Shown here in pieces: positions 115 through 34,859 of a stretch of DNA of 35,660 bases. Every line of letters starts with the position of its first letter. The first letter of the stretch is position 1. Source of the DNA: a virus; UHGV virus genome UHGV-0200663, one strand, 5' to 3'. The notes beneath the pieces are model-generated. The model saw nothing but the letters and a program-made list of their open reading frames with translations. It searched no databases and was not told where the DNA came from. The position numbers and the translations under genes were made by a program.

Positions 115-840
115 TCACTTCGGGTATGGCTGAACCCTGAATAGCTTGGTGTTTAGGCGCTTTTTTGCGCGCTTATTCAGGAATCTGATGTAGCGATACT
201 GATTAAATTTGTGTACCACGGCCCGCTCCTTATTAGCCCGTAAATACACACCTCGTTGCCCTCCGCGCTTAATCGCGTTCATCGCTATCTCGTGATACCA
301 CTCGCCGTCCAGTTCGTAGAACGTGCTTTCGTGGCTGCCTATAAAATCAAAATTCGACGCCTGATATACCACGCCAGCACGTCCGCAGCGTTCGTCTGCA
401 AAAGACTGAACCCACTCAACTGACGGATACAGTAACCTGATGGTTTTCAGCGCGTAACTGATGGCCCGTGATTCAGAGTTGCGGGGCATGTCGTCGTGTA
501 GCCACATGCGATTCAGTTCCATATAGCCCCGGTTATCCGTTTCAAGCACGACCCGACGCCCTGAGTTGGGGTTAAGGGCATATCCCCACTGAAGAACGCC
601 AACCAGATCACGTCCGCTGAATACGCCAAGATGCAGGTAGGAGTTATTCACAAAACGGCGAGAATAGTGTTTTGTCTGAATGATTGTGCGGGCCAGCCAG
701 CAGGATATGGTTTCAACGCGCAGCTCCTTTGAACCATAGCCGACAATCCGGCCTTCATACTCAATAACGCAGGGTTTTGTCAGAATGCGTGATTTCTTCT
801 CTTTTCCCACAATACAGCTCCGTGGGATGCTCTTTGGCAT
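115..840 (-). CDS. mom: Mom-like DNA modification protein (adenine carbamoylmethylation, anti-restriction)
   Basis: Terminal gene position next to attR, immediately after and overlapping com, as in Mu. ATG at 840 (MPKSIP...); the ORF-track start at 852 is TTG. Confidence 0.75.
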
Positions 841-946
841 TCGATATGACAATGTAACGTTTACAGCGAGGGCATTTAATTTCTATATGCTTAAAACCTC
901 CTTTAAACAGTAATTTATTGCAGTTTTTACAGCGAACAGAGTCCAT
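761..946 (-). CDS. com: Com zinc-finger translational activator of mom
   Basis: [15 protein letters not shown]...[14 protein letters not shown]...[16 protein letters not shown]: four-Cys zinc finger matching Mu Com from recall. Start taken at second in-frame ATG (946); overlaps mom start by about 80 nt. Confidence 0.8.
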
Positions 947-973
947 GATTCCCCCTGTGTAATAACCAGACAT

Positions 974-1069
974 GAGCGCCCGGAGGGCTGGGGGTATTTA
1001 ATCACAATTGATGCAAACCGACGATCGATATGATGTTATCGATCGTCATAAACTATACATACTGATTAT
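974..1069 (-). promoter_or_regulatory. mom operon regulatory region with GATC-containing perfect inverted repeat (Dam/OxyR-type control region as in Mu Pmom)
   Basis: GACGATCGATA-TGATGT-TATCGATCGTC at about 1020-1047 carries two GATC sites; lies directly upstream of com on the minus strand. Confidence 0.55.
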
Positions 1070-1672
1070 TTAATCACCGACAGTTAACGCTCTCACCTCG
1101 TCCAGTATGGACAGCCGGGAAAGCTGCTCCTTCATTTCACGCTGGCGCTGATAAATCCCGTCATTGCGATCGACCTGTGCCTGCGCCATTGCTGTCGCCA
1201 GTTCTTCCAGTTCCGGCATTGACAGTTTCACCTGTTGATTATCGGCGTCACCCCACGTCATCACGTCCCGCGCTGTGTCAGATTTCGCCGCCATTACCAC
1301 AGGATAAAGACGGGCCAGTGAGTCGGGGCCAGCGTTCCAGGTGCGACCGTTCCATTCGAACGTGAACGGCTGCGCTTCCTGTTCTGTGCGCCACGCCTCG
1401 ATTTCCATCTTTTTGGCATCTTTTGCCGCTGCGATAAGCTCCGGCGTGATGGTGAACGGGGCGATTTCGCCCCATTTGCCGCTTTGCAGTTCCTGCCAGA
1501 TGCGCTTACCGATTGTTGATGTATCATCAGGAGTGGCAGTGTAAGGGACTGGCTGCGGCTGGCCGTCAAACCAAACGTCACAGTCTACAGCGCTATTTTC
1601 TGTATAGCGGGGATTAATGATTTCTTTGATTTCCACGATGCATTCCTCACGCTGTGCGAATAAAAAGCCCAA
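1070..1672 (-). CDS. Tail fibre assembly chaperone (second cassette)
   Basis: Immediately downstream of the long fibre gene. ORF-track start at 1672 is TTG; a GTG at 1636 preceded by GAGGAA is a plausible true start. Family call is by position and size only. Confidence 0.5.
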   Translation of the reverse strand: MGFLFAQREECIVEIKEIINPRYTENSAVDCDVWFDGQPQPVPYTATPDDTSTIGKRIWQELQSGKWGEIAPFTITPELIAAAKDAKKMEIEAWRTEQEAQPFTFEWNGRTWNAGPDSLARLYPVVMAAKSDTARDVMTWGDADNQQVKLSMPELEELATAMAQAQVDRNDGIYQRQREMKEQLSRLSILDEVRALTVGD

Positions 1673-4600
1673 TCATCGCGTCGGAACCATAGGTGTTTGT
1701 TACCCCGGACAGGGCGCGATATGTACCCGGTAATGAATGACCTGCATTTCCCATAACGTAGAATTGCGGGCTTGATGAATACGTTCCGGCTGGATTGTAG
1801 GGCGCTGAAATTCCCACCGGCCCCAGCCGTGAGCCTGCGTAATATTGCCCTCTCACAAGCTTGATTTTTGTATCTCCGTCAGTCGTTCCCTGGTATGCAG
1901 CAATAATCAGTCCACCAACATCAGGGTCTCCCCACTCATTGCTGATGGTCCCCCCCATAACATTATAAATATCGGCTGTGGATATCTTTATTCGCTCCCA
2001 GCCAACAAGACGCCCGTAAATATATCGGTTAAACCAGATATCACCGTTTCCTGCATAAAACATTATGCATTTTGCAGCATCTGACGGGGGCTTTGTTTCG
2101 TACTGGTTCATCTGCCAGATAACATCAAGAATACCCGTAAAATAAACACCAGGTATGATTGTTCCCTGATTAGGGACGGTTACCGCATAACGTCCCGGAT
2201 AAGCGTTTGTTACCCACGTGGTCAGCTCCGATGTGTTTTTAAAGGTGAGCTGGTCTTCTTTTCCAAACGGATAACCAAATCCGAATGCACCAGGAAGAGC
2301 CAGTTTATCTTCCGCCCGGTCATAAATATCACTCTGGGCGCTGTACGTATTCTTTTGCAACTCAAGAACAGACAGCATGTCTTCCGCTGTAGTCTGAGCA
2401 AGCAGCAGCCGGGCTTTTTCTGACAGTGGAGACAGTGAAGCATTCCCGTCCTGATTAAAGCACAGAAGATTATCTGCCCGTTGCGTCAGTTCACTGATAG
2501 CCGTCAGCACATCGTTCAGCGGTTGTTTACCGGCCAGCGCGTTCATGATTGTCGTCGCAAAGTTCGGGTCATTACCCAGCGCCGCTGCCAGCTCGTTCAG
2601 CGTGTCCAGGGCTTCCGGTGACGAGTCAACCAGTGCAGCAAGCAGTTTGCGGACAAACGCCGCATTGGCTATTTCATTACCTGCTGCATCATCTGGTGGT
2701 GTTGGCGTGGACGGCGTTCCGGTCAGTGTCGGACTGTTCAGTGGCGCACGGGTTTCAATCAGTGCCCGGAGTGAAACCTCGTTGACTTTCAGGTTTTCCC
2801 AGCCAACCAGATAACCATCTCCGGTAGTCCAGTAGCGATTGTAATAAATGTGGCCGTTAATACCGTAAAAAATAATGATTTTAGCCACACATGCCGGATT
2901 GGGGTTGGTTTGAGGTTCCGGCCAGATAATTTCAACGGTACCCTTGAACAGCACGCCCTGTATTACCGCATTTGTATCTGCATAAACGGCATAGCGTCCG
3001 GGTTTTGCCGTTTTTACCCAGCGGAGAAAATCGGCCTCTGTTTTAAACTCGGTCCTGTCGCCGCTGGAAAATATTTTCCCGAATCCGAACATGCCAGGAA
3101 CCGCCAGACGGCCTTCGGTGCGGTCGTAAATACTCTCCTGCGCATCCTTTTGTGCTGCATTGCCCAGTTGTGGCGTCAGATTCGTCCAGGTGACCGGGGC
3201 GGAGATATTATCGCCACGAACGGTCATAAGAATCCGTCCGTCTTTTCCAAAGAACAGAACCAGCTTTGTTGCTGTCTGACTGGTTTTGTCGCCCCGGCCA
3301 TTATCCAGCCAGATAATTTCTGTTATTCCGGTTGTTTTTTCCGTTTGTGTGGAAAAGGTGTAATACCGTCCCGGGTGCAGGTTGTGAGCGGTTCTGGCTA
3401 CAGTCGCCATATCGCTGGCAATAATTGAACGTGCTCCGGCGTCCGTCATTCCGTAACCATACGCACCGGGAAGCGCAACACGGCCTTCCATGCTGTCGTA
3501 AAGGTCTATCTGAATATCCCTTACCGCTGCGCTTTTCAGCTCAAGCTCATTGCGCATGGCTTCCGCTGTGGCCTGTGCCAGCAGTGACCGGGCTTTTTCT
3601 GACAGCGGAGACAATGAAGCATTTCCGTCATGATTAAAGCACAGAAGATTATCTGCCCGTTCTTCCAGATTACTGATTGCGGTTAACACGTCACTGAGTG
3701 GTTGTTTACCCGCCAGCGCGTTCAAGATTGTTGTCGCAAACTCCGGGTCATTGCCCAGCGCCGCTGCCAGCTCGTTCAGTGTGTCCAGGGCTTCCGGTGA
3801 CGAGTCAACCAGCGCAGCAAGCAGTTTGCGAACAAATGCCGCGTTCGCCATCTCCAGCCCGGTCGCATCGTCCGGCGGGGTTGGTGTGGTGGGCGTGCCG
3901 ATGAATGCCGGGCTGTCCAGTGGCGCTTTTGTTTTCGTCTCGTCCATGACGGTTTTGACGGCTTTTGGCGTGGCGGCCAGTTCTTCGCTGTCGTTGTCTG
4001 TATCACTACAGAGTTGCACCAGGCCTTTTTGCGTCGTGCTGGCGTTGGTTCCCTTCAGGTCATCAACTATCCGTTGCGCCTCGTCCCTGTGCTGTTTCGC
4101 GCTCTGCTCGCTTTTTGCTGCCGCTTCGGCGCTGGCTTTTGCCTCACCGGTCAGCGTTGCGGCATCAGCAAGTTTATCGACCGCTTTCTGGACTATCTTA
4201 TCGGCATCTTTGACCGCCTGTTCTGCCCGGGCGGCATTCTGGTTGGTCTCAGAGGCCAGCTCTTCAGCTTTCTGCACATTACCCGCGATTTCTTCTGCAT
4301 CCTGCTGTATTTCCCCGGCGAGCGCTTCTGTATCCTGGCGGGCCTGTTCAGCAGCGGTGGCGTGCTCTCCTGCTTTTTCTGCGCTTTGCTGCGCCTGTTG
4401 CGCCAGCTCTTCGAATTTCTTCAGGGCTTCCGGGCGCAGGTCAATATCGGTTGCGCCCAGAAAATCATTCAGCGAACCGTCCGCTGAATCTTCATAAACG
4501 CGGATGACACCGATTTCTGAAAGGCGCTGTGTGCTTTGTGTCAGGCGAACGCTGTACACACCCGGCAGAACGGTGAAGTCATATTCCCCGTTCTGTGTGG

Positions 4601-5252: not shown

Positions 5253-6062
5253 TTAGCCGGATACCGTGCGCCATCCGCCATTGATATAAATCTGAGTTTG
5301 TTTGTAATACACGCCGCCGATGTTATCCGCAGAGCTCCTGCCAGTATCCTGAACGTTAATACCTGACAAAATACAACCTGAAGGCGCGCGAAATACCCAG
5401 GAAATTTCGTTACCACCGGGATTGTGAAACACTTCGCTGGTGTATCTGAAATCACGCACAGCGCCGGAATCGGTGCTGCTGATGGTGATATCGCTGGTGC
5501 CATCAAACAGCACATTGTTAATCCTGCGGGCCGTCTGAAGCCGGGTTGCCGTTCCGGCATTGCCACTGATGTTGCTGATGGTGATATCCGAAGACAGGGC
5601 CATGCCGTTGACCCTGCGGGTATTCGGTACAGCACTATTAGCTTTATTTACCGTGTCACGTAATGAAAGTGCGTCGATAATTTCACTGGCTGTGTTTTTC
5701 CCGAGAATACCGCGCACAAAAGCACTGAGCGGCGTTAATGCCATTGTGTCTTCGCCCGTAAAATACGGGAACGTATTATTCTGACCGGTTAATCCGGCAA
5801 TAGCTCCGGCTGAACCACTGTTCGTAATAAACAGTTTTTTCAGCGCCGTCATAATCTGGTCGGTGGTGTTTTTATCCGGTTTGATATTTGCCTGCCGGAG
5901 AATTTCCAGCAGTTCGGACTGAATAATATTAAACCAGTCCGGCCCCGGATAGGTGGGCGGAATACCATTCCCGCCTTCGGTAAAATAAAGCGTTGTTTTG
6001 CTTAATTCAGCCGCGACAGGTGGCATCACCGGCACACCCGTCGGATTATCCACATGAAACAT
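5253..6062 (-). CDS. Short tail fibre protein (Mu S / P2 H-like)
   Basis: N-terminus MFHVDNPTGV...; internal FPYFTG motif and C-terminal ..YINGGWRTV resemble P2 H / Mu S family fibres. ATG at 6062 with GGAG upstream. Confidence 0.65.
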   Translation of the reverse strand: MFHVDNPTGVPVMPPVAAELSKTTLYFTEGGNGIPPTYPGPDWFNIIQSELLEILRQANIKPDKNTTDQIMTALKKLFITNSGSAGAIAGLTGQNNTFPYFTGEDTMALTPLSAFVRGILGKNTASEIIDALSLRDTVNKANSAVPNTRRVNGMALSSDITISNISGNAGTATRLQTARRINNVLFDGTSDITISSTDSGAVRDFRYTSEVFHNPGGNEISWVFRAPSGCILSGINVQDTGRSSADNIGGVYYKQTQIYINGGWRTVSG

Positions 6063-7711: not shown

Positions 7712-8153
7712 TAATGGTGGCCTCCCATCGGCGGGTGATTTCGATTGTGAGCGTGGTTTTGTCCGGGCGGGTTAACACCACCTGAAAGGCAATACGGTCA
7801 GGGACAATGATTCTGGCCGTGACGGCGGCGTTACGGGCGTAACCGGCCCGCAGCAGCGGTTGCATGGACAGCCGCGCGTAATCTTCCACACGCAGGCGAA
7901 CATCTTCCGTCAGCTTTTCGCGTTCAAGCAGCCACAGGCGGGAACCCCACGAAAAATCGCTGTACGTGTCGCCCGGCCAGCCGCGCGGGTCGCCGGAACC
8001 ATCAGGAATGACATCATCGTCATCAGCGCGGGCATCGGTGAAAAGGCAGATAAGAACCTGAGTGACCAGCCCCTCATCCCGTGAGAGGCCGTTATGGGTG
8101 ACGGTGATGTCACCCCGTGAGAGCATGTTATTCCAGCGGATTCCTGTCGTCAT
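7701..8153 (-). CDS. Baseplate assembly protein (Mu gp46-like)
   Basis: 150 aa, between spike-like and J-like genes; start overlaps upstream stop. Confidence 0.5.
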   Translation of the reverse strand: MTTGIRWNNMLSRGDITVTHNGLSRDEGLVTQVLICLFTDARADDDDVIPDGSGDPRGWPGDTYSDFSWGSRLWLLEREKLTEDVRLRVEDYARLSMQPLLRAGYARNAAVTARIIVPDRIAFQVVLTRPDKTTLTIEITRRWEATINAV

Positions 8154-8686
8154 ACGGGCGGTGATGTATTCTCATTGTCGCCGTCCTTATGAATGTGTTT
8201 GATGAATGATTTACCGTTGATTCTGACATCTTCAGTAAATTCACAGGGACCGACGAATTTCATTTGTTTACCGATAATATTCAGCAATTCGTCGGCGGTG
8301 AGATTTACCGTTTTCCCTGAAACGTTTAATTGTTCTCCTGTGATTTCAATAATACCGCCTTTCTTTAACGTGATATGCGATTTACCGTCCTGGTGATACA
8401 GCCGGACATCACCGGGGGACAGGCCTTTCGGGCGACATCGCTTGTCCTCCACCGCGATGGCAACCAGCCCGTCACGCCGTCCGCCCACGGCCAGCACGAT
8501 GGCTTCAGAACCTTCCGGCGGAACGGAAGTAAACCCGTAGTTCTGGAAGCGTTCCACGTCGTCATCGGTGGCATCTGCCAGTGTCTGGATTTGCAGGTTC
8601 TGCCGCTCCAGACTGTCAGACACCATGCGCACAACGGCACGGTCAACCAGCAGCCGCAGACGGCGGGCAATGGCGTTTAATCCCAT
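8150..8686 (-). CDS. Baseplate spike / V-like protein (Mu gp45-like)
   Basis: 178 aa; position in baseplate module. Confidence 0.5.
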   Translation of the reverse strand: MGLNAIARRLRLLVDRAVVRMVSDSLERQNLQIQTLADATDDDVERFQNYGFTSVPPEGSEAIVLAVGGRRDGLVAIAVEDKRCRPKGLSPGDVRLYHQDGKSHITLKKGGIIEITGEQLNVSGKTVNLTADELLNIIGKQMKFVGPCEFTEDVRINGKSFIKHIHKDGDNENTSPPV

Positions 8687-9747
8687 GTGGCCACCGCCTT
8701 TGTTTTCTTCGTCTTCGCTTTCATTTCCGGCATATCCAGTGATTCAGGCGGAACCAGCGCCAGAACCGTCATCCGCCCCTGTGCGCCATCCGTCCAGGTC
8801 ACCCCGGATATCAGCCAGGTGGTTTTCAGGTTCTGAATGCTGTCGTCGATATCGACAAGGCGGTTGGTCTGCCACAGCGGGCCGCTGTCGCCCTGTTCGC
8901 GCCAGCCTGCCACCGTGATTTCCGTCGTGCGGGATTCCCCCAGCATCCGGGCTTTGTACCATTCCCCGCGAATGCTGGCCCCGCCCACGGTCAGGCTGTC
9001 TTCATTGACCAGAATGCGCGGGCGGTAACGGTTAATTTCCGGGTCTTCGATGATGTACTGGCGACCACCCACCATCGAGGCAGGCTGGCTGTCCCACAGT
9101 TTGCCACCGGCACTGGTGGTGCCCTTGATGATGTACTGGCTGTTACGCTCCCGCCAGCTGAAGCGCCCACGGGCAGCGAGGATATTTTTCCCCAGCACCA
9201 GTGACACACCCGCGCGAACGGAAGAGGCGCGGGTGATAATCAGGTTACCTGCGCCGTCAGACGTCAGCAGAACGCCGCGCTGTTTTGCCAGCCGGTCGAG
9301 CAGTTCAAAGCCCGTTTCACCCTGTTCCAGAACAACGGACGCAAACGCCTCCCCGGTCGGGGTTTCCGTGATGACAGTTATCCCGAACGGGCGGCAGACA
9401 TCAGCCGCCACCTGTTCAAGCCGCACGCCTTTCCATTTCCCGGACGAATGCACCACAGAGCAGTCCACCAGGTCGCCGGTTTTGTCGCGCCCCATGACAC
9501 GAATTTCCACATTGTCCGCGTCATAGCTGGGAATAAAATCATCGATATACCCCGTCAGCACGGTATCCGCGCCCAGCCTGACCGTGCAGGGTTGCCCCTC
9601 ACGAATCACGCGCGGTGCCGCCGCTGACCAGCGGGTTGTCACACTGAGTTCAAATTCACCGGCAATCGCCTTCAGGGAACGGCTGATGGACATTTCCGTC
9701 CAGCCTTCCCACAGCTTGCCGTCAACGGTAAGAATCACGGATTCCAT
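8677..9747 (-). CDS. Tail/baseplate hub protein (Mu gp44-like, P2 gpD-like)
   Basis: 356 aa; follows the DNA circularisation-like gene as in Mu. Confidence 0.55.
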   Translation of the reverse strand: MESVILTVDGKLWEGWTEMSISRSLKAIAGEFELSVTTRWSAAAPRVIREGQPCTVRLGADTVLTGYIDDFIPSYDADNVEIRVMGRDKTGDLVDCSVVHSSGKWKGVRLEQVAADVCRPFGITVITETPTGEAFASVVLEQGETGFELLDRLAKQRGVLLTSDGAGNLIITRASSVRAGVSLVLGKNILAARGRFSWRERNSQYIIKGTTSAGGKLWDSQPASMVGGRQYIIEDPEINRYRPRILVNEDSLTVGGASIRGEWYKARMLGESRTTEITVAGWREQGDSGPLWQTNRLVDIDDSIQNLKTTWLISGVTWTDGAQGRMTVLALVPPESLDMPEMKAKTKKTKAVATWD

Positions 9748-11021
9748 CAGTCGGTAATCTCCACAGGTTGCGTTGGCAGTATGAATGACGGATGGCGCAG
9801 GCGGTTACGCTGCACGATTTCATCCCGTCGGCTTGTGTCACCATGTTCGCGCCATGCCAGCAATGCGGCAGATGTGGTTGTGGTCAGCGCCACCTGTCGG
9901 GTTTCCGGCAGACGGGCGGCACGCTCGCGGGCATCCGTAATCACGGCCTGCCGTAAATCGCGCAGCGTTCGCCACAATGCCCGCTGGTTATTTTCCACCG
10001 CCGCCACCGCCTGCTCATGCAGTTCAGCCGCCAGCGTGTCACCGGCAGATAACGCCGCGTCACTGGTATCGAACGTCATCGAGGCCACGGCATTTGCCTG
10101 TCCCAGCAGGGTTTCCAGCACAACCACCTGGCGGAAGTCGTCAATGTTCTTCTGCAGGCTGTCAGATACCGGCTGATAATCCGGTGACAACCCGATAGCA
10201 AAGCCAATTTCACCGTCTGCCACGCTGCCAGGCTTCACGGTGATATCTTCCGGCAGTGCGCCGGTGGCAACCTGTCGGGCGCGTTCACCGGCCCACTGGT
10301 TGCGTAATGTCGTGTAAACTGCCAGTGCTTCGGGTGGTTCCGTCACCAGATCAACCACGCCGTTGATGAACGAGGACAACTCACTGACCAGACGCCCCGG
10401 CGTGGCAATGATGGTTCCGGCCATCTCCTTAAAATGGTTCAGCCTGTCCATCCACTGATTCAGTGCTGCCGGTAGTGTGGGCAGATTAGCCACAAGGTTC
10501 TCCATATCAGCCAGAAAGCTGTCGGCCATCTCACCCAGCCCGTCGAGTGCGCCGAACCAGTCGCCATCGTCAATGGCGGCTTTCACCGCATCAATGCCCG
10601 TCAGCACTTCCTGCTGAGTGTTATCCGCCGCAGACGGGAACAGACGCTCGCCCGCCTCAAACACTTCAAAGGTGACATACGCAATGCCGTCTTCCTCCGT
10701 GCTGAGGCGATGGGTTACCTTGCCAACCTGTACAGTCTGTATCCCGAACCACGGGTGGATAAGCTCGCCGGGGCCGGGGGTATTGAGCGCGTCTAAAAGG
10801 GCGTTTAAATCATCCTGGAAGTTTTTACCCAGCAGCTTTGCGTTAATCTGCTGTTGCCCCGGAACGGCCCCGTTATCATCCGTCCAGGCGGTTTCACGCC
10901 GGGGGTAAGCACGGGGAATAGCCCTGCGGCCACCGGTGCCTTCTGTATCCACCAGAAAGAAGGGGACACCGCGAAACGAGGCATCGCGCAGCCCGTCCCA
11001 TTTGCCGTTACTCATTGTCAT
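9747..11021 (-). CDS. DNA circularisation protein N-like (Mu gp43-like)
   Basis: 424 aa immediately downstream of tape measure; N-terminus ..ASFRGVPFF.. Start ATG overlaps tape-measure stop. Confidence 0.55.
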   Translation of the reverse strand: MTMSNGKWDGLRDASFRGVPFFLVDTEGTGGRRAIPRAYPRRETAWTDDNGAVPGQQQINAKLLGKNFQDDLNALLDALNTPGPGELIHPWFGIQTVQVGKVTHRLSTEEDGIAYVTFEVFEAGERLFPSAADNTQQEVLTGIDAVKAAIDDGDWFGALDGLGEMADSFLADMENLVANLPTLPAALNQWMDRLNHFKEMAGTIIATPGRLVSELSSFINGVVDLVTEPPEALAVYTTLRNQWAGERARQVATGALPEDITVKPGSVADGEIGFAIGLSPDYQPVSDSLQKNIDDFRQVVVLETLLGQANAVASMTFDTSDAALSAGDTLAAELHEQAVAAVENNQRALWRTLRDLRQAVITDARERAARLPETRQVALTTTTSAALLAWREHGDTSRRDEIVQRNRLRHPSFILPTQPVEITD

Positions 11022-17203: not shown

Positions 17204-17207
17204 GACT

Positions 17208-17257
17208 CTGCCTTTTAAAAGGCAGTTAAAAGGGCATTCACAGCGCCTTTTAACTGC
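17208..17257 (-). promoter_or_regulatory. Two overlapping stem-loops downstream of major head gene (possible attenuator)
   Basis: Perfect palindrome CTGCCTTTTAAAAGGCAG (17208-17225) and inverted repeat GCAGTTAAAAGG...CCTTTTAACTGC (17222-17257). Confidence 0.4.
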
Positions 17258-17281
17258 GGGTTACAGATTACGGATGACGGG

Positions 17282-18184
17282 TTATGCCGGGGTGGTGATG
17301 AACGGACTGACCACGATGTCCACATCCTTGTACCAGATGTTGGAATCGCCGCCGTTAACCAGCATGGCGTCAATGATGCGCTTCGCGGCTGCACGGTTTT
17401 TCTGCCCCACCACAAGGGTGGTCGGGCGGATGCCCAGCGGTTCACCGTTGGTGGTCTTCATACCCAGCAGCAGATTGCTGGCCTTCTCGTAGTTCTCCGC
17501 TGTCAGTGCCGCACGGGAACCGACGGCGGTCTGCCAGAAGCCGAAGCCCGCATTGCAGCGACCGTCCACCCCGTAAAGGAACTCGTTATTCTTGAAGGTA
17601 TGCTCGCTGTTCAGATCATCCAGGGCTTCAAACTTAAAGGCGCGTCGCGTCTGCCAGATGATGGGTTTCAGTACCTGAGAATCATCAATCAGAAACCACG
17701 GTTCCCCCTGGTCTGATGCCGGGGTGCCGACAACGTTGCTGCAGGTGCCGTCGCCCAGCGGGTGGTCTTCATCAAAGAAGTTCTGACCGTCAAAACACAG
17801 GGTGTTAAACCCGGCACACAGCAGGGGGTAACACAGCTTGTCCGGGAACTCCGACGTCTGGCGGCCATAGCGTTCAGCGATAATGCTGTACTGACCAATC
17901 TGATCGTCTTCAATGTGTTCGCGTTTAACGCGGATCGAACTTTCCCAGGTTTTGTTCGCAAGGGTGTAACCATAACCGTCCAGCGTTGCCATCTGACGGG
18001 CGCTGACCCATTCCTTAATCTCCGGTAAATCTTTCATCCAGCCGTAGGTATTGGAGGCGGACGAACTCGGGATTTCAGAGGCGATGCGCTGCCACTGTGG
18101 GGTGACACCACTCAGACCACGGGTATAAGCGGCGCTCAGACAGGTGGTCAGCGCGTGAAGGACTTCGGAAGTGACTGCTCCCAT
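17282..18184 (-). CDS. Major head (capsid) protein, Mu T-like
   Basis: 300 aa immediately downstream of protease/scaffold gene; ATGA overlap. Confidence 0.7.
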   Translation of the reverse strand: MGAVTSEVLHALTTCLSAAYTRGLSGVTPQWQRIASEIPSSSASNTYGWMKDLPEIKEWVSARQMATLDGYGYTLANKTWESSIRVKREHIEDDQIGQYSIIAERYGRQTSEFPDKLCYPLLCAGFNTLCFDGQNFFDEDHPLGDGTCSNVVGTPASDQGEPWFLIDDSQVLKPIIWQTRRAFKFEALDDLNSEHTFKNNEFLYGVDGRCNAGFGFWQTAVGSRAALTAENYEKASNLLLGMKTTNGEPLGIRPTTLVVGQKNRAAAKRIIDAMLVNGGDSNIWYKDVDIVVSPFITTPA

Positions 18185-19146
18185 CAGTTATTCTCCTGTT
18201 TAGGTTTAGCGGCGAGGAACTCTTCCCCGGTAATACCCATGCTGCGGCACATCGCCAGTTCGGCGTCGGTCAGTGTCTGCGCGGGTTTATCCTTGCCCTG
18301 GCTGGGCTTGTCGTTGTTCACCAGCGGCTGTGCACCTTTGGTGTACTCCGCAAACTGTTTGCGGCCTTCTTCCGTGCGGCAGGTGGCAAGGAACATGTCA
18401 CGGTTTGCCGGGGCCACTTTTCCGGCTTCGATGGCCGCATCCACAAGCGCTTCTGCTTCCTTCTCTTCCAGTTGCTGAAGGCGTTGTTCTGCGGTTTCGG
18501 CACGGTTCAGTGCCAGATTGTGGGTTTCCACCGGTACAAACTTCGTCAGGTCAGGTGTCTGTGCGCGGTTCAGCGCCACCTGTTCGTTCTCCTGAAGTTG
18601 TTTAATGGCGGCCACGGTATCGTCCACCGTGGCAGATTCAGCCAGCCCAAGCAGGCCGGTGATTTGCACAGGTACTGTCATCGGGTTTTTCTCCGTATTC
18701 AGTGCAGGAAAGTCCAGATTAGGTTTGTTGGTCAGCCCGACGCTGGACAGGCGCGTCACCACACCCTCCGCGTCATGGAAAAACGCCGGGCTGTAATAGC
18801 GGTAGCGGCGCTCGCTCAGCATCCACCGGGCGTATTCGCTCCAGACAACACGGCCTTCAATGGTGCCGCTGTCTGTCACCCGCAGTTCTTCCACCCAGCC
18901 ATACGCCGGGGCTTCATCACCGCGTTGCCCTTTAATTTCGGTGGCGTGTTCAATGTCCACCGGAATTTTGATGTCGGACGAACGGGCAACCACCTCATGC
19001 GGATTGCGGTTAATCCACGTCCGGCCATCGCGCCCGGTGAACTCACCCGCAGGAACGAGTTCAAGCCATTCCGGCAGTTGAGCAGGTGTCAGCTCAGGGA
19101 TGGGTTCTGGCAGGGAAAAACACAGCGCCAGCAGTTCCGGTTTCAT
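18184..19146 (-). CDS. Head maturation protease / scaffold, Mu I-like
   Basis: 320 aa, first gene after an intergenic region with terminator-like hairpins; Glu/Ala-rich C-terminal half. Confidence 0.65.
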   Translation of the reverse strand: MKPELLALCFSLPEPIPELTPAQLPEWLELVPAGEFTGRDGRTWINRNPHEVVARSSDIKIPVDIEHATEIKGQRGDEAPAYGWVEELRVTDSGTIEGRVVWSEYARWMLSERRYRYYSPAFFHDAEGVVTRLSSVGLTNKPNLDFPALNTEKNPMTVPVQITGLLGLAESATVDDTVAAIKQLQENEQVALNRAQTPDLTKFVPVETHNLALNRAETAEQRLQQLEEKEAEALVDAAIEAGKVAPANRDMFLATCRTEEGRKQFAEYTKGAQPLVNNDKPSQGKDKPAQTLTDAELAMCRSMGITGEEFLAAKPKQENN

Positions 19147-19195
19147 GTCAGTCTCCGTCGTCTGGGGTTACCGACGGTCAGTATGCGGAAGGCAG

Positions 19196-19220
19196 AAAAA
19201 AAGCCGGATTTACCGGCTTC
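19196..19220 (-). terminator. Hairpin plus T7 on gene strand (GAAGCCGG-TAAAT-CCGGCTT TTTTTTT), 50 nt upstream of the protease/scaffold ATG; identical copy at 26917-26941
   Basis: Read directly from sequence; 25/25 nt identical to the copy upstream of the endolysin gene. Confidence 0.5.
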
Positions 19221-19242
19221 ACTGAAAACGGGAAGAACCCCC

Positions 19243-19284
19243 CCTTCAAAACCCCTTCAAAAACGCCACAGCACCTTCAAAAAA
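19243..19284. repeat. Three direct repeats of CCTTCAAAA (minus strand TTTTGAAGG), spaced 11 and 20 bp
   Basis: Copies start at 19243, 19254 and 19274, in the intergenic region between the MuF-like and protease/scaffold genes. Confidence 0.5.
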
Positions 19285-19360: not shown

Positions 19361-20125
19361 TTATTCACTGTCAAAACGTGCCTGTCTGGCTGCCAGCTGG
19401 CGTGCCAGCTCCTGCTCACGGTTTATGCCGGGGTTGTAGTTCCAGCCCGGATCAATCCCTTCCGGCACGTCTTCCTCTTCGCCCGTGCGTTTATTCACCC
19501 AGCGGACGGTTCTGATTTCCGGCGCTTCGGTGTGAATGGTGCCCTGTGCCGCCAGTTGCGCATACTCACCACGGCTGACCTGACGGATGGTGCATTTGCA
19601 GCCCCAGCCGTTAGGGGCAAAATGTGTCTGCCAGAACGGATGATCTACCGGCAGACACAGACGCGCCCATTTCACATGCTCCGCCCGGTGCTCGCGGGAT
19701 GGCCCCAGCTCGTAAATCAGATACGGCATGGCCCGCTTTGTTCGCTGAATGCGTTCCCACTGGCCCGCCGCGCGGGCAGTGCGCATGTTGGTGTCAAAAA
19801 TCGTGCGGAGGCGGCGGTCGCTGCCCAGCTGTACGGTTCGGGTTTCGCCCGTCAGCGGATCATCCATCTCCTGAACACCCCACCATCCGCGTTTTATCAG
19901 CAGCGGTTGCAGCGCCTCCCGGAACTCGCTGAACGTCTGTCCGCTTTGCAGGGCGTCTTCCACAAGGACTTTCACATCCGACAACAAATCCAGTTGCAGC
20001 ATTTTTGCCACGGTGAAGCTGTTCCGGTGTTCTTCCCGCCATACATCCCGGTAATCAAAACCGGGGCGCAGCTTCTTCGCCTTCAGCCACGCCAGCGCCT
20101 CTTTCGGGATGAGAGTTTCACGCAT
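19361..20125 (-). CDS. MuF-like minor head protein
   Basis: Downstream of portal as in Mu (H then F). ATG at 20125 (MRETLIPKE..) overlaps portal stop by 8 nt. Confidence 0.55.
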   Translation of the reverse strand: MRETLIPKEALAWLKAKKLRPGFDYRDVWREEHRNSFTVAKMLQLDLLSDVKVLVEDALQSGQTFSEFREALQPLLIKRGWWGVQEMDDPLTGETRTVQLGSDRRLRTIFDTNMRTARAAGQWERIQRTKRAMPYLIYELGPSREHRAEHVKWARLCLPVDHPFWQTHFAPNGWGCKCTIRQVSRGEYAQLAAQGTIHTEAPEIRTVRWVNKRTGEEEDVPEGIDPGWNYNPGINREQELARQLAARQARFDSE

Positions 20126-21689
20126 GACCGGTGTCCCCCAGCGCACGCGCCTTAAAGCACACCTCCGCCAGTTGCAGGGCAAAGTCGTCCGCGTTCAGCG
20201 TTTCCTGAAGCTCAGGCAGGCGTTTCAGAAAGTCATCAAAACTGTCGCATTCCTGCGCCAGTGTCAGCACCGGGTTCGTGAACGCTTCGCCGGTTTTCTG
20301 CCAGTCACGCAGGGCATCATCCACCATCTGTGCCAGTTCGTCGGGGTGTTCCCGGTTCAGGGCGACGCGCTCGCGGTTCATCGCCACATCACCTGACATT
20401 CCGGCAGACACCGGATGCAGAACATCAGCCCCGTCGTCCGGTTCAGCCAGGCCGAACCGGTCCCGCAGCTCCGATTCCTGAACCCGCATCCCCCGGTCAA
20501 TCAGTGGCACCAGAGCATCTGTCAGCGCCTTCAGATCTTCCGCTTCACTGATACGCAGAACAACACGGGGGTATTGCGCCTGTGGCCCGTAGTTGGCCTC
20601 GATATAGGGACGCACCAGATATTCATTCAGCGTGTTAGCCAGCTGCCGCGCGTCCCAGCGCACAATGTCCATACGCACCTGATTGTGCACGTCCGCCTGT
20701 GAACGCGAACTGCCGTTATCCGTGGTCATGGTCTGCCCCAGCACAGCCTTACTGATTTGCGCATCGCACCATTCCGCCATTTCACAGAACAGTGCACCGC
20801 CGTTATTCCGGCTGGCGGTTTCCTGCATCTCCAGTTGCATGGACTGCGGAATTGCACACCCGGCATCCGAGGCAATGGACGCAATCGCATCAATCAGTAC
20901 GCGGATTTGCTCCTCCGTGGCGTTGGGACCGTATTTCCCCACCGTGACCGGAATGCCGAACTTTTCCGCAAATGCCCACCAGTCACGCACGGTAAAGGAT
21001 TTCAGCATGTACATCACCGCTACCAGACGGGCCAGACCGTTACGCAGCGGCAGACCGGATTTCAGACGCGGCTGGTGAACAATGAATTTTCCCGGTGTCA
21101 GCGATACGCCATCCACCGGTTCATCGTCAGTCAGCAGGCGGAACTGGCGCAGCGTGGGTTTTTCGGCTTTCAGAAAACGGGGATCAACCCACTCATAATC
21201 ACGGGGCATCCAGTGGTTGTTGCGGGTGTCCCACAGGATTTCACAGACCGCCACGCCTTTTCCCAGCCCGTCGAGCAAATCAAACATCAGCTCAGGGATT
21301 TGCGGGGCTTCCATCAGCGCACGGATGGCGTCCGCCAGTTGCACGTCAGCATCGTCATCACTGGCGGCCACCACCACCGGTTCGATACCCGCCACCGTCA
21401 GCTTGCGGGTGCGCAGCACCGAGGCGTAATGCAAATCGCGCTCTTCCATCTCTTCAGCAAGGATAAAAAAATCACGCGTGATGCCGTCGGCGGCATTGCG
21501 CAGAATGCCTGCCAGCCTGCCGGGGTTCAGCCCGGAGGCGACGCTGATACCCGGCGAGGCCGAACGCACACCGGCATGACGCGGACGGGCCTGCGCTTCA
21601 TTGAGCGCCTCTTTTTTCAGCGTGCCTTCCTCACCGGTTGCCGGGTTCAGCAGACGGCGAACGGCCCCGGCCAGTTGTTTCAGGTTCAC
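20118..21689 (-). CDS. Portal protein (Mu H-like)
   Basis: 523 aa immediately downstream of terminase large subunit; GTG start at 21689 preceded by GGGAGG. Confidence 0.7.
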   Translation of the reverse strand: MNLKQLAGAVRRLLNPATGEEGTLKKEALNEAQARPRHAGVRSASPGISVASGLNPGRLAGILRNAADGITRDFFILAEEMEERDLHYASVLRTRKLTVAGIEPVVVAASDDDADVQLADAIRALMEAPQIPELMFDLLDGLGKGVAVCEILWDTRNNHWMPRDYEWVDPRFLKAEKPTLRQFRLLTDDEPVDGVSLTPGKFIVHQPRLKSGLPLRNGLARLVAVMYMLKSFTVRDWWAFAEKFGIPVTVGKYGPNATEEQIRVLIDAIASIASDAGCAIPQSMQLEMQETASRNNGGALFCEMAEWCDAQISKAVLGQTMTTDNGSSRSQADVHNQVRMDIVRWDARQLANTLNEYLVRPYIEANYGPQAQYPRVVLRISEAEDLKALTDALVPLIDRGMRVQESELRDRFGLAEPDDGADVLHPVSAGMSGDVAMNRERVALNREHPDELAQMVDDALRDWQKTGEAFTNPVLTLAQECDSFDDFLKRLPELQETLNADDFALQLAEVCFKARALGDTGHA

Positions 21690-26264: not shown

Positions 26265-26861
26265 TCACCCCCGCGTGGCGGACATGATGCCCAGAGGGGT
26301 ATCGATGATTTCCAGACAGGCGTCGGTCAGTTTTTCCATGCGGTTAAACCAGCCGTTCAGGTATTTACCCTGGGCGGGTTTTGACTTGATGATGTCGGCA
26401 TAAAAGCGGGAACGACGGACAATGCAGCGGGCCAACAACCAGTCCGGGGTGGACAGACTCACGGCCTTACGGGTACGCGGGCCGATGATGCCGTCAGCAT
26501 CCACATCAGCGGCTTCCTGCAAAATTCTGATGGCTTTTTTAACGCCATGCTGAACCGCTGCATCGAACACAAACATCGCCACGCCATCAGGCCACTGGTC
26601 ACATCCGGCAGGCAGCCAGTAATCGCGCCAGTAAATCTGCGCGACCTGTTCGCGGGTTAAATCCTTAATGCGGGTATCCGGTTTGCCGTCGCCGTTGACA
26701 TCGGTTTTGCCGTCAATCACACCGTCGCGGCGGTCAGAAATGCCGTATTTGGTTTCGCCGCCACGGTCAGTGGGGTCATTGACATAGACGCCTTCGATAT
26801 CGGGACGCAGAATGAAATTCAGCGCATGCTCAAAGGCCGGGGGGAATTTTTGATTTTCCAT
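26265..26861 (-). CDS. Endolysin, GH108-type N-terminal domain with C-terminal peptidoglycan-binding-like domain
   Basis: Motif VNDPTDRGGETKYGI near the N-terminus is characteristic of GH108 lysozymes; no N-terminal hydrophobic signal-anchor; first gene after a terminator-like hairpin. Confidence 0.6.
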   Translation of the reverse strand: MENQKFPPAFEHALNFILRPDIEGVYVNDPTDRGGETKYGISDRRDGVIDGKTDVNGDGKPDTRIKDLTREQVAQIYWRDYWLPAGCDQWPDGVAMFVFDAAVQHGVKKAIRILQEAADVDADGIIGPRTRKAVSLSTPDWLLARCIVRRSRFYADIIKSKPAQGKYLNGWFNRMEKLTDACLEIIDTPLGIMSATRG

Positions 26862-26916
26862 AAAAGCACCTGTGAAGCAGATTTAAACGTGGTCTGCTTC
26901 ATGGTGCCGGAGGCAT

Positions 26917-26941
26917 AAAAAAAGCCGGATTTACCGGCTTC
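26917..26941 (-). terminator. Hairpin plus T7 on gene strand after the Mor/C-family gene, 56 nt upstream of endolysin ATG; identical to 19196-19220
   Basis: GAAGCCGG-TAAAT-CCGGCTT TTTTTTT on minus strand. Confidence 0.5.
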
Positions 26942-26946
26942 ATTGA

Positions 26947-27396
26947 TTAAGGGCGTCGTGGCGGACGACGAACGGGGTGAGGCAGGTTCGGGGAGGGGTA
27001 AAACAAATCCGGCTGGTATTTATTGCGCTCCAGACGTCGCATCCGTTTGATGGCCTTGTAGACGGTTTTATACGTCACCCCGTAACGCTGAACCAGTTCA
27101 GGAATATTATGGCCGTTAAAATCACGCCAGATACGCATATCCCGGACAAGATTCTCCAGAATATTCCCCCTCGGAACATAAACCTGCATCCCGCCGATAT
27201 GGCGACAAATCGCCACAACCAGCTCAAGGGAATGGGCAGGGTCTGCGCCAATCCGGGCCAGCTCTTTACGCAGCAGTGCGTTCAGTTCAGAAAGTAACGC
27301 CGGATAAGCGGTGTTTTCCTGGTAATCATGAAGATATTCCAGAACGCTGTCGTCCCGGAGGTCTTCGAATAAATCCTGCTCTTTCATCTGTTTCAT
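26947..27396 (-). CDS. mor: Mor/C-family transcriptional activator (middle/late gene activator)
   Basis: 149 aa in ATGA overlap with the gemA-like gene, as gemA-mor in Mu. Conserved C-terminal region ..HSLELVVAICRHIGGMQVYVPRG...RIWRDFNG...YGVTYKTVYKAIKRMRR.. Confidence 0.6.
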   Translation of the reverse strand: MKQMKEQDLFEDLRDDSVLEYLHDYQENTAYPALLSELNALLRKELARIGADPAHSLELVVAICRHIGGMQVYVPRGNILENLVRDMRIWRDFNGHNIPELVQRYGVTYKTVYKAIKRMRRLERNKYQPDLFYPSPNLPHPVRRPPRRP

Positions 27397-27956
27397 ACAG
27401 CAATTCTCCCGCTGTTTCGTGCACGGGCATACGCACTGGTCAGTGCATCATAGCCGCGCAGCTCCCGCCCAGTTTCGCTCACAGGTAAAGGCACACCATG
27501 TCGGGCAAAGGCTTCACGGATGCAGCGCATATGCCACTGTTTGAGCGTTTCAAGCACAACCTGCAACGATTCCCCGTGACACCATGCCAGCGTGGAAACA
27601 CCCTGACCGCCATTACGTCTGGCTGTCAGGCGCTCAACGTATTTGTCCAGCGCAGCGTCGCTGATATCGGAAACGAAACCATCAAGGAACATCTGCTGCC
27701 AGATTTTGTAAATCTTCTCGCGCGGTGTGACATGCCCCTTAAAGCGACGGCGGGGATGTTTTTTCTGCTTCTTAAAACCGCGCTCTTTCATGGCATCGAG
27801 CACCCGTTCCAGTTGTGCAACGGACAGCTCGCGGCAACTGGTTTTGCCCGTGCACTGCACCAGAAAGGCGCGGTAAGTGTCATCGTCGAGTTGTAGATCG
27901 CGACGGGCGACATGAATTAATTTAATCAATGATGCGCGCATGATGCGTATCTCCAT
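27393..27956 (-). CDS. gemA: GemA-like early regulatory protein
   Basis: 187 aa immediately upstream of and coupled to the Mor-like gene, as in Mu. Confidence 0.5.
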   Translation of the reverse strand: MEIRIMRASLIKLIHVARRDLQLDDDTYRAFLVQCTGKTSCRELSVAQLERVLDAMKERGFKKQKKHPRRRFKGHVTPREKIYKIWQQMFLDGFVSDISDAALDKYVERLTARRNGGQGVSTLAWCHGESLQVVLETLKQWHMRCIREAFARHGVPLPVSETGRELRGYDALTSAYARARNSGRIAV

Positions 27957-30355: not shown

Positions 30356-30625
30356 TTAATGTTTGGCTGCATCCGGGTTATACCGGAATAACTCGCCTTC
30401 GGCTTCCAGCCCAAGTTCTCTGGCTGACTTCAACAACTCCTGGGTTGCTTTTTCAATAATTTCAGGAGCCATGCTCTTGATAATGCCTGCCATCACGTCA
30501 TGCGGTCCGATTTGCTCCTTAGGAGACTGTTCTCCCAGTTGCACACTCATTCCTACAAAGAAACCTCCTTTTTTCTGAAACTCAACATCTTCCATGCGGT
30601 TAAATTCAAAGATTACTTTTGCCAT
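30356..30625 (-). CDS. Hypothetical early protein (90 aa)
   Basis: ATG at 30625 (MAKVIFEF..) with GAGGA upstream. Confidence 0.4.
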   Translation of the reverse strand: MAKVIFEFNRMEDVEFQKKGGFFVGMSVQLGEQSPKEQIGPHDVMAGIIKSMAPEIIEKATQELLKSARELGLEAEGELFRYNPDAAKH

Positions 30626-34268: not shown

Positions 34269-34859
34269 TTGAAAAGTAACTTTATAGAATCTGGTGATAC
34301 TAAAAAGTCAATCTGGTGTACGCCGCAAGAAATTATGGCTGCTGATGGTATGCCTGGATCTGTTGCAGGTGTTCACTATCGGGCAAATGTTCAAGGCTGG
34401 ACAAAGCGAAAAAAGGAAGGTGTGAAAGGGGGGAAAGCAGTTGAATACGATGTGATGTCTATGCCCACCAAAGAACGAGAGCAAGTTATTGCACACCTAG
34501 GTCTGTCTATTCCTGGCACTGCTGCTCAAGCTAATGAGCCGCAGGATTCTTCGGAGCTGATAAACAAATTAACCACAACCTTAATCAATATGATTGAAGA
34601 ACTGGAACCAGATGAGGCACGTAAGGCACTGAAACTATTAAGCAAAGGTGGGCTACTGGCGTTAATGCCACTTGTATTTAATGAACAGAAGCTTTACAGC
34701 TTTATAGGATTTTCACAGCAAAGTATCCAGACGTTGATGATGCTAGATGCATTACCTGAAGAAAAACGCAAAGAGATTTTGTCAAAGTATGGGATTAATG
34801 AACAGGAGAGTCTTGTAGCTCCTTTGCAGGATCCACAAGATGTAAAAAAAGCCGTATAA
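34269..34859 (+). CDS. c: Mu-type c repressor
   Basis: 196 aa, MKSNFIE...SIWC.PQEIMAADGMPGSVAGVHYRANVQGWTKRKKEGVKGGKAVEYDV.. matches Mu repressor from recall; first codon in this frame is TTG; divergent from ner. Confidence 0.8.
   Translation: MKSNFIESGDTKKSIWCTPQEIMAADGMPGSVAGVHYRANVQGWTKRKKEGVKGGKAVEYDVMSMPTKEREQVIAHLGLSIPGTAAQANEPQDSSELINKLTTTLINMIEELEPDEARKALKLLSKGGLLALMPLVFNEQKLYSFIGFSQQSIQTLMMLDALPEEKRKEILSKYGINEQESLVAPLQDPQDVKKAV

Follow-up and report, generated by a model that had tools for sequence, protein, structure and literature searches.

In phage Mu, the middle promoter Pm is activated by a Mor dimer that binds a 16-bp site from –51 to –36 with its centre at –43.5 (PMC4390567, PMC4287176). 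The Mor element consists of two A/T-rich 5-bp inverted repeats flanking a G/C-rich hexamer (PMC4390567), the footprint of Mor on Pm extends from –56 to –33, and the promoter has a –10 but no –35 element, with the bases G, T, A, A and A at –57 to –53 (PMC4390567, PMC4287176). Bases that adjoin the dyad on its downstream side are also required, and a published primer for cloning functional Pm begins at nucleotide 9163 and extends through the hairpin of this promoter. In the GenBank record of Mu, the Mor-activated middle promoter is annotated at 9163–9233 with a predicted terminator inside it at 9179–9200. The early transcript of Mu presumably ends at this hairpin, which carries a TransTermHP annotation in GenBank as well and which we take to be t9.2, the early-operon terminator of the Howe-lab literature.

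The window analyzed here, the whole 35,660-nt stretch of UHGV virus genome UHGV-0200663, contains a complete prophage of the Mu type, whose genes are encoded on the – strand. Genes for a Mu-type repressor, Ner and the transposase proteins A and B are located at approximately 31–35 kb and are followed by gemA, a Mor-family gene, a GH108 endolysin gene, terminase, portal and an F-like gene, then by protease I, major head protein, sheath, tube, tape measure, baseplate genes, tail fibres and com/mom, and Mu-like right-end repeats are found at the start of the window (Table 1). The junction between mor and the endolysin gene (lys) shares 99% identity with prophages of E. coli STEC388 and XJ34 and is present in 53 of 5,426 complete E. 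coli genomes, and further members of the clade occur in Raoultella, Kluyvera, Pluralibacter, Serratia and Klebsiella. A search against Rfam returned zero family matches across the whole window. Apart from the locus under study, a 300-nt direct repeat with 85% identity (2354–2653 and 3533–3832, 1179 nt apart) was observed within the gene for a 1024-amino-acid tail fibre. Directly past the major head gene, at 17204–17281 (– strand), lies a long hairpin, GCAGTTAAAAGG...CCTTTTAACTGC, followed by CTTTTAAAAGG, and Mu has a predicted terminator (20068–20087) at the equivalent position.

Table 1. Positions of genes and of observed and predicted regulatory features in the window.
Feature	Positions	Strand	Sequence or basis
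gemA	27393–27956	–	directly precedes the Mor-type gene
Mor/C-family activator gene, Mor-type	26947–27396	–	Pfam Mor, 3.6e-30
25-nt element, copy A	26917–26941	–	exact match; terminator scan; fold
Predicted Mor box A	26929–26944	–	AATGA-AGCCGG-TAAAT; Pm alignment; relaxed-box scan
–10-like hexamer, predicted Mor-dependent lysis promoter	26901–26906	–	CACCAT; Pm spacing; predicted +1 near 26893
Hairpin 2, site A	26873–26901	–	TGAAGCAGA (26901–26893), loop, TCTGCTTCA (26881–26873)
GH108 endolysin gene	26265–26861	–	Pfam Glyco_hydro_108 and PG_binding_3; ATG at 26861
Mu F-like minor head gene, last gene before copy B	19361–20182	–	Pfam Phage_Mu_F
25-nt element, copy B	19196–19220	–	exact match; terminator scan; fold
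Predicted Mor box B	19208–19223	–	AGTGA-AGCCGG-TAAAT; Pm alignment; relaxed-box scan; invariant columns in relatives
–10-like hexamer, predicted Mor-dependent head promoter	19180–19185	–	CATACT; Pm spacing; predicted +1 near 19172
Hairpin 2, site B	19155–19177	–	CCGTCG (19177–19172), CGACGG (19160–19155); SD GGAG at 19156–19153
Mu-like protease/scaffold gene I	18184–19146	–	Pfam Mu-like_Pro, 1.3e-44; ATG at 19146
Candidate third Mor box	8303–8318	–	AGGGAAAACGGTAAAT; relaxed-box scan; inside gp45-like baseplate gene (8150–8686)

A repeated terminator-like hairpin and its counterpart in the Mu middle promoter

The initial annotation had reported one identical 25-nt hairpin at two late-operon boundaries, and the two copies of this 25-mer (AAAAAAAGCCGGATTTACCGGCTTC on the + strand) are indeed exact, lie at these gene boundaries and exceed chance expectation. 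No further copy was found in the window with up to three mismatches allowed, and none appeared in 100 shuffles. In other genomes, the exact 25-mer occurs twice each in Raoultella and Kluyvera and is also present in Pluralibacter and Serratia. The repeated region exceeds the 25 nt first noted and covers 49 nt with 86% identity (19184–19232 and 26905–26953), extending 5' into TCA[A/G]T and 3' into a common TGCCT.C.GCA...T stretch that bears a –10-like hexamer. A partial copy at 34827–34857 (repeat family D7) was rejected, as it comprises only the A-run and GCCG at the end of the repressor gene and lacks the hairpin, and so was ACCGGTTAATCCGGC at 5784 on the + strand, which lies inside a tail-fibre gene and lacks the flank of the box.

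Read on the gene strand (GAAGCCGGTAAATCCGGCTTTTTTT), the element has an 8-bp stem with five G-C pairs, a 5-nt loop and seven consecutive T residues, folds with approximately –12.6 kcal/mol and was picked up in both copies by a terminator scan; it thus shows intrinsic-terminator features. In copy A, the stem arms occupy 26941–26934 and 26928–26921, the loop 26933–26929 and the T-run 26923–26917; the T-run of copy B is at 19202–19196. Each copy is located where a transcription unit ends. Copy A begins 5 nt past the stop codon of mor, the last gene of the early operon, and itself ends 55 nt ahead of the endolysin ATG, and copy B lies between the F-like gene and the protease I gene and ends 49 nt ahead of the protease ATG. 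We predict copy A to be the intrinsic terminator of the early operon (ner-A-B...gemA-mor) and copy B that of the late transcript from lys to F. The + strand of the hairpin carries no T-tail, and the element is therefore not a bidirectional terminator. Upstream of copy B, at 19237–19284 (– strand), three direct repeats TTTT(T)GAAGG(G) were noticed; relatives and Mu carry repeats of the TTTAAACG type in their place, and in Mu this same intergenic region contains the annotated cut site of the strong gyrase site. The repeats may be an equivalent of the strong gyrase site or phased, DNA-bending T-tracts.

The core of Mu Pm, AAAGCCGGTTAATCCGGCTTTTTTT, differs from the element by two mismatches (23 of 25 bases are the same) and a Mu-like phage of Yersinia carries the same sequence as the Mu Pm core. 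The alignment of both copies to Pm is gap-free; it starts 5' of the hairpin, covers the T-run and reaches a hexamer at identical spacing, which reads TATCCT in Mu, CACCAT at site A and CATACT at site B. We placed the Mor box on the Mu sequence from published text, using GTAAA at –57 to –53, the 5 + 6 + 5 structure of the element and the annotated extent of the promoter. With this placement, AGTAA-AGCCGG-TTAAT is the box, TATCCT occupies –13 to –8 and +1 lies eight nucleotides past the hexamer. Both boxes in the window match this arrangement column for column, and the start sites were predicted from the spacing. The predicted Mor box, A[AG]TGA-AGCCGG-TAAAT, would thus be formed by the left arm and loop of the hairpin together with the three nucleotides 5' of the stem; it is offset from the hairpin dyad, with its centre approximately 5.5 bp upstream of the hairpin centre, and the right arm and the T-run fall into the promoter spacer at about –35 to –24.

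Like Pm, the modules have a –10-like but no –35 hexamer; the right arm, CCGGCT, takes up the –35 position. With three to four of six matches, both –10 hexamers are weak, and a sigma70 scan called neither promoter. The half-sites of the box are only weakly symmetric in the clade (AATGA or AGTGA versus TAAAT). At –57 to –52, where the alpha-CTD has its A-rich proximal UP subsite in Pm, Mu has GTAAAC; site A has TTAATC and site B GTTTTC, both rich in A/T but different, and relatives vary at this position as well. The resemblance to Pm and the early-operon terminator of Mu further includes the location next to mor, the box at –51 to –36, the T-run in the spacer, the overlap of the terminator hairpin with the activator site and a short inverted repeat between the –10 element and the start codon of the next gene. 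Differences from Mu concern the loop, TTAAT in Mu versus TAAAT in the window, and the 5' half-site, AGTAA versus A[AG]TGA. The initial annotation had put the element just upstream of two putative late promoters, a placement that needs correction because in the Pm alignment the element is part of the predicted promoters, to which it contributes box and spacer.

The genomes directly show the identity of the two copies and their homology to Pm, as well as the geometry of the sites, the genes present and the patterns of conservation. We consider it highly probable that each copy is a composite module homologous to Pm and the early-operon terminator of Mu, put to repeated use ahead of late operons in a cascade of two tiers; Mor binding, termination and the start sites are predictions. 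At the RNA level, the GC-rich hairpin and the seven U residues would halt transcription arriving from upstream, i.e. from the early operon at copy A and from the lysis-to-F operon at copy B. At the DNA level, the same nucleotides would provide the 16-bp Mor box at about –51 to –36 and the spacer from –35 to –24, followed by the weak –10 hexamer at –13 to –8. The single Mor-type activator, made last in the early operon, would bind the box and recruit sigma70 RNA polymerase, and new transcripts would begin approximately 24 nt downstream of the T-run. These Mor-driven transcripts would cover the lysis/packaging block and the head block, with the endolysin gene as first gene of the lysis/terminase/portal/F block behind predicted promoter A and protease I as first gene of the head block behind predicted promoter B.

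Conservation of box and terminator in related phages

Conservation was analyzed in 60 IMG/VR contigs with Mor proteins that are 59–100% identical to the one of the window. In 58 of the 60, those with enough sequence past mor, the element is found at a fixed distance before the endolysin gene, and it shows a single variable base, located in the loop (TAAAT or TTAAT). This spacing to the endolysin gene is maintained down to 61% endolysin identity and often despite 350–550 nt of extra genes between mor and the element. The element therefore keeps its place with the downstream and not with the upstream gene, as would be expected of a promoter. The hexamer column at the lys site reads CACCAT, CACTAT, CAAAAT, TAAATT, CACAAT or CACACT, and the stem shows zero covariation. 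About two thirds of the E. coli relatives and the majority of the distant ones have one or two extra small genes between mor and the module (e.g. contig L011, 10462–10941), which are missing in the lineage of the window.

The same features bear on the proposal that the element is a terminator and nothing else, copied or kept identical by gene conversion, with the late genes transcribed from promoters elsewhere or by read-through, which we regard as very improbable. Ordinary rho-independent terminators share with it the GC-rich 8-bp stem, the 5-nt loop, the U7 tract on the coding strand and the location past the last gene of an operon, so that the hairpin indeed qualifies as a textbook case. 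Moreover, the exact 25-mer is found 24 nt past an unrelated 297-amino-acid ORF in an Ignavibacteriaceae MAG (CAYXTW010000023.1; L004, 930–954), suggesting that such a sequence can arise or serve as a generic terminator; this occurrence could represent convergence on a good terminator or contamination. However, ordinary terminators drift by compensatory changes, whereas the 25-nt element stays fixed at the base level in phages with flanking proteins of only about 60–70% identity. A function in termination alone is also at odds with the near-identity to the Mu Pm core, where Mor binding is established, with a –10-like hexamer at fixed spacing in all relatives, with an element that travels with its downstream gene, and with the failure to find any other late-promoter candidate in the window or a C box near its late operons.

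The protease I site is more variable and allows the two functions to be told apart. When 42 distinct sequences (20 representatives) were aligned without gaps, 12 columns proved invariant, namely A9, G12, A13, A14, C17, G18, G19, T20, A22, A23, T24 and T30; 11 of them fall within columns 9–24, which correspond to the inferred Mor box, and C25 and C26 are nearly invariant. The register of the box is thereby independently supported, since conservation at the protease I site marks the same 16 columns. The box is always kept and is accompanied by a hexamer at a fixed column (CATACT, GACACT or CACACT), whereas the right arm and the T-run decay: a stable hairpin with a T-rich tail is present in 10 of 29 distinct variants, and the remaining 19 have lost the terminator features but kept the box, which is a further argument against a mere terminator. 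Nevertheless, some covariation of the stem at this site, as a plain terminator would show, was detected. Two stem pairs have changed on both sides (A-U to G-C and G-C to C-G), and 87.5% of the cells are paired compared to 81.4% in shuffles, although these counts are not phylogenetically independent. The protease I hairpin therefore also seems to be under some selection, and considering the box only is insufficient. As a possible explanation, Mor may hold left arm and loop constant. A right arm required for termination would then have to stay complementary to the constant left arm and would be constant as well, and it could drift at sites that can do without termination.

The suggestion in the initial annotation that the hairpin also serves as a shared protein-binding dyad is partly borne out, in that the element overlaps a very probable Mor site, given that it is a near-copy of the Mu Pm core. 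However, Pm mapping and conservation indicate that the binding box is the offset 16-bp box and not the dyad of the hairpin. That the perfect dyad itself, GAAGCCGG/CCGGCTTT, is a symmetric site for the activator or another dimeric protein appears improbable to us. The inverted repeat is a perfect 8 bp, its sequence is frozen at the lys site, and both arms have changed together in some protease I variants, e.g. GAAGGCGG..CCGCCTTT. In addition, cryo-EM suggests Mor/C tetramers that cover about 26 bp and would reach the right arm, and an alternative numbering register, 7 bp further downstream, would center the footprint on the hairpin itself. On the other hand, the published Mor site with its A/T-rich 5-bp repeats and G/C-rich hexamer fits AGTAA-AGCCGG-TTAAT instead, and the invariant columns of the relatives start three nucleotides ahead of the stem and continue to where the loop ends, whereas the right arm is disrupted at pair 17–27 in 9 of 20 representatives. 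Furthermore, phages with a GGCGG/CCGCC protease I site keep GCCGG/CCGGC at the lys site, so that one protein would need to accept both versions of the arms, and pairing in RNA is the better fit.

It is extremely improbable that the element is merely a recombination marker at module boundaries between Mu-like phages, or a small mobile or REP-like element, with no regulatory role. It does sit at junctions of variable gene content, given the extra genes after mor in many relatives, and identical copies could promote exchange. However, each genome has just two copies, which always occupy these two functional positions and are oriented alike with respect to the downstream gene, target duplications and other mobile-element features are absent, and the Mu homologue is a characterised promoter.

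A candidate intragenic box and late transcription without C

A position weight matrix derived from 13 full-length sites recovered just the two known copies in the window. This matrix is dominated by the hairpin and therefore missed a third box, which was detected with a relaxed half-site pattern that gave six matches in the window versus 0.56 expected. The third box lies inside the gp45-like baseplate gene and is followed 23 nt downstream by TATTAT (8279–8274) and approximately 165 nt downstream by the ATG of the gp46-like gene (8153). It has one mismatch to the box at the protease I site of a relative (zero expected) and is conserved in 20-odd distinct relatives, synonymous sites included. 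Within the box, the entropies at third codon positions are 0.21, 0.67, 0.00, 0.95 and 0.21 compared to about 1 in the flanks, and one codon varies in the encoded amino acid (T, A, R, S or K) but keeps G as its third base. Hairpin, T-run and right arm are all missing, as a terminator inside a gene could not be tolerated; a box without a hairpin argues against a terminator-only function, and a box without any right arm against binding to the hairpin dyad. The –10 element of this site is less convincing in distant relatives. We regard the third box as a candidate internal late promoter that probably serves the baseplate and tail-fibre genes. The remaining matches, at 119 (–), 5724 (+) and 29475 (+), correspond to the end of a gene, to the non-coding strand or to AT-rich sequence and were treated as chance.

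The positions of the three boxes resemble those of the Mu late promoters, which likewise lie before the endolysin gene, before protease I and, in the case of P_P within gene N, inside a gene of the baseplate cluster. The Mu late promoters also have an activator site centred at about –43.5 and a –10 hexamer but no –35 element. At Mu Plys, a predicted terminator (10383–10406) abuts the promoter (10403–10469), and another is predicted before PI in a position matching copy B. Unlike in the window, however, the recognition sequence in Mu is that of C. Mu has a single module of the Pm type, which drives a middle operon that ends in C, and C then activates four late promoters, whereas the module in the window occurs two to three times directly before the lysis, head and probably baseplate genes.

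Six-frame searches detected a single Mor/C-family gene in the window and no C paralog. The encoded activator has 63% identity to Mu Mor compared to 32% to Mu C, and the recognition-helix motif TVYKAI[KR]RMRRL is the same in the window activator and in Mu Mor. None of the 60 relatives contains a second Mor/C paralog, C included, within up to 10 kb on either side of mor or to the contig end. Sites of Mu C fit TTAT-N5-6-ATAA; in the window, this pattern is absent from the vicinity of the late operons and matches only at 30378 and 30722 in the early region, so that neither a C gene nor a C site upstream of a –10 element is available for C-dependent late promoters. The lack of a C gene implies a cascade of two tiers (early, Mor, late) instead of the three in Mu, and the clade thus appears, judged from gene content and promoter sequences, to run from early genes via Mor to late genes without the middle step of Mu. 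At its C-terminus (...YQPDLFYPSP...), the window activator carries QPDLF where Mu Mor has QPSLL, and a QDLF motif is present near the N-terminus as well; QPDLF is the C-terminal clamp-binding motif of MuC (PMC12867686). The com/mom operon of the window (115–1075, – strand; Pfam Mom, 3.6e-75) has an upstream region homologous to Mu Pmom, including the GATC cluster. In this prophage without a C gene, the Mu C site TTAT-GCCCCA-ATAA upstream of mom is altered to TTGT-GATTAA-ATAC, and the spacer is shorter by about 10 nt.

A second hairpin across the predicted start sites

Between the –10 hexamers and the start codons, a second hairpin (hairpin 2) was found at both sites. At site A it begins where the –10 hexamer ends and stops 1 nt short of the SD AGGTG (26871–26867), and at site B the SD GGAG is overlapped by the right arm. 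Hairpin 2 is the best fold of 38 distinct endolysin leaders; it begins –2 to +1 nt from where the –10 hexamer ends and, in most leaders, extends to the SD, about 8–11 nt before the start codon. The sequences of the arms are quite different among these leaders and too divergent for alignment with MAFFT, and the lys class was analyzed by folds of the individual sequences and by comparing cognate with non-cognate arms. Cognate arms pair with –9.8 kcal/mol on average compared to –5.1 kcal/mol for non-cognate arms (permutation p ~5e-5). For the protease I leaders, RNAalifold on 13 relatives yielded seven pairs, two of them with compensatory changes, and Mu Pm carries TGATGA...TCATCA in the position of hairpin 2 (L001, 1219–1224 with 1242–1247). 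Hairpin 2 thus covaries freely 30 nt downstream of a 25-mer that remains unchanged at the lys site, which argues for a constraint on the sequence of this 25-mer in addition to its structure and against a simple terminator. In three related contigs (L060–L062), a copy of the hairpin-1 core in inverted orientation, ACCGGATTAACCGGT, is located within the hairpin-2 loop, approximately 40–67 nt downstream of the lys-site element.

As the left arm lies between the –10 element and the predicted +1, RNA initiated by Mor would lack it, and only read-through RNA would be able to form the hairpin. In predicted read-through RNA, the unpaired probability of SD and start region decreases from 0.48 to 0.28 in the lys class and from 0.60 to 0.37 in the I class, compared to 0.42 (lys) and 0.49 (I) with a shuffled upstream extension. 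The drop in SD accessibility has a Wilcoxon p of ~7e-7 for samples that are non-independent. As a result of folding predictions, it lends support to a safeguard by fold-back against leaky termination but is no proof of one. Fold-back inhibition is known from the transposase mRNAs of IS10 and IS50, in which sequence upstream of the transposase's own start pairs with the ribosome-binding region. Like in these elements, the predicted silencing would be limited to transcripts reading in from outside; unlike in these elements, hairpin 2 would as a candidate function shield late phage genes from early-operon read-through, and in the lys class its right arm abuts the SD without covering it. Somewhat speculatively, the module may thus be a three-layer fail-safe of terminator, embedded activator box and hairpin 2 that is conserved in Mu-like phages including Mu Pm. 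Only read-through RNA would fold into hairpin 2, its translation would be poor, and endolysin and head protease would stay off until Mor is made.

Measured against what is known of Mu, the module is a tidy but expected variant that would strike a Mu specialist as sensible and not as a surprise. Most noteworthy are the separable constraints on box and terminator across relatives and the hairpin across the predicted start site, and the latter is the most novel lead among all findings presented here. The relatives separate two functions that are packed into 25 nt, with the box kept always and the terminator only where read-through would be harmful, e.g. before lysis genes. Their Mor boxes also form a natural set of variants that could be used in structure-function studies of Mor/C activators. 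If true, the covarying hairpin at the start site would add a translational safeguard, none of which is described for Mu in the literature that we searched. Overall, the analysis provides a testable promoter map for a widespread clade of Mu-like prophages, in which Mor would act as the direct activator of late genes in a two-tier cascade.
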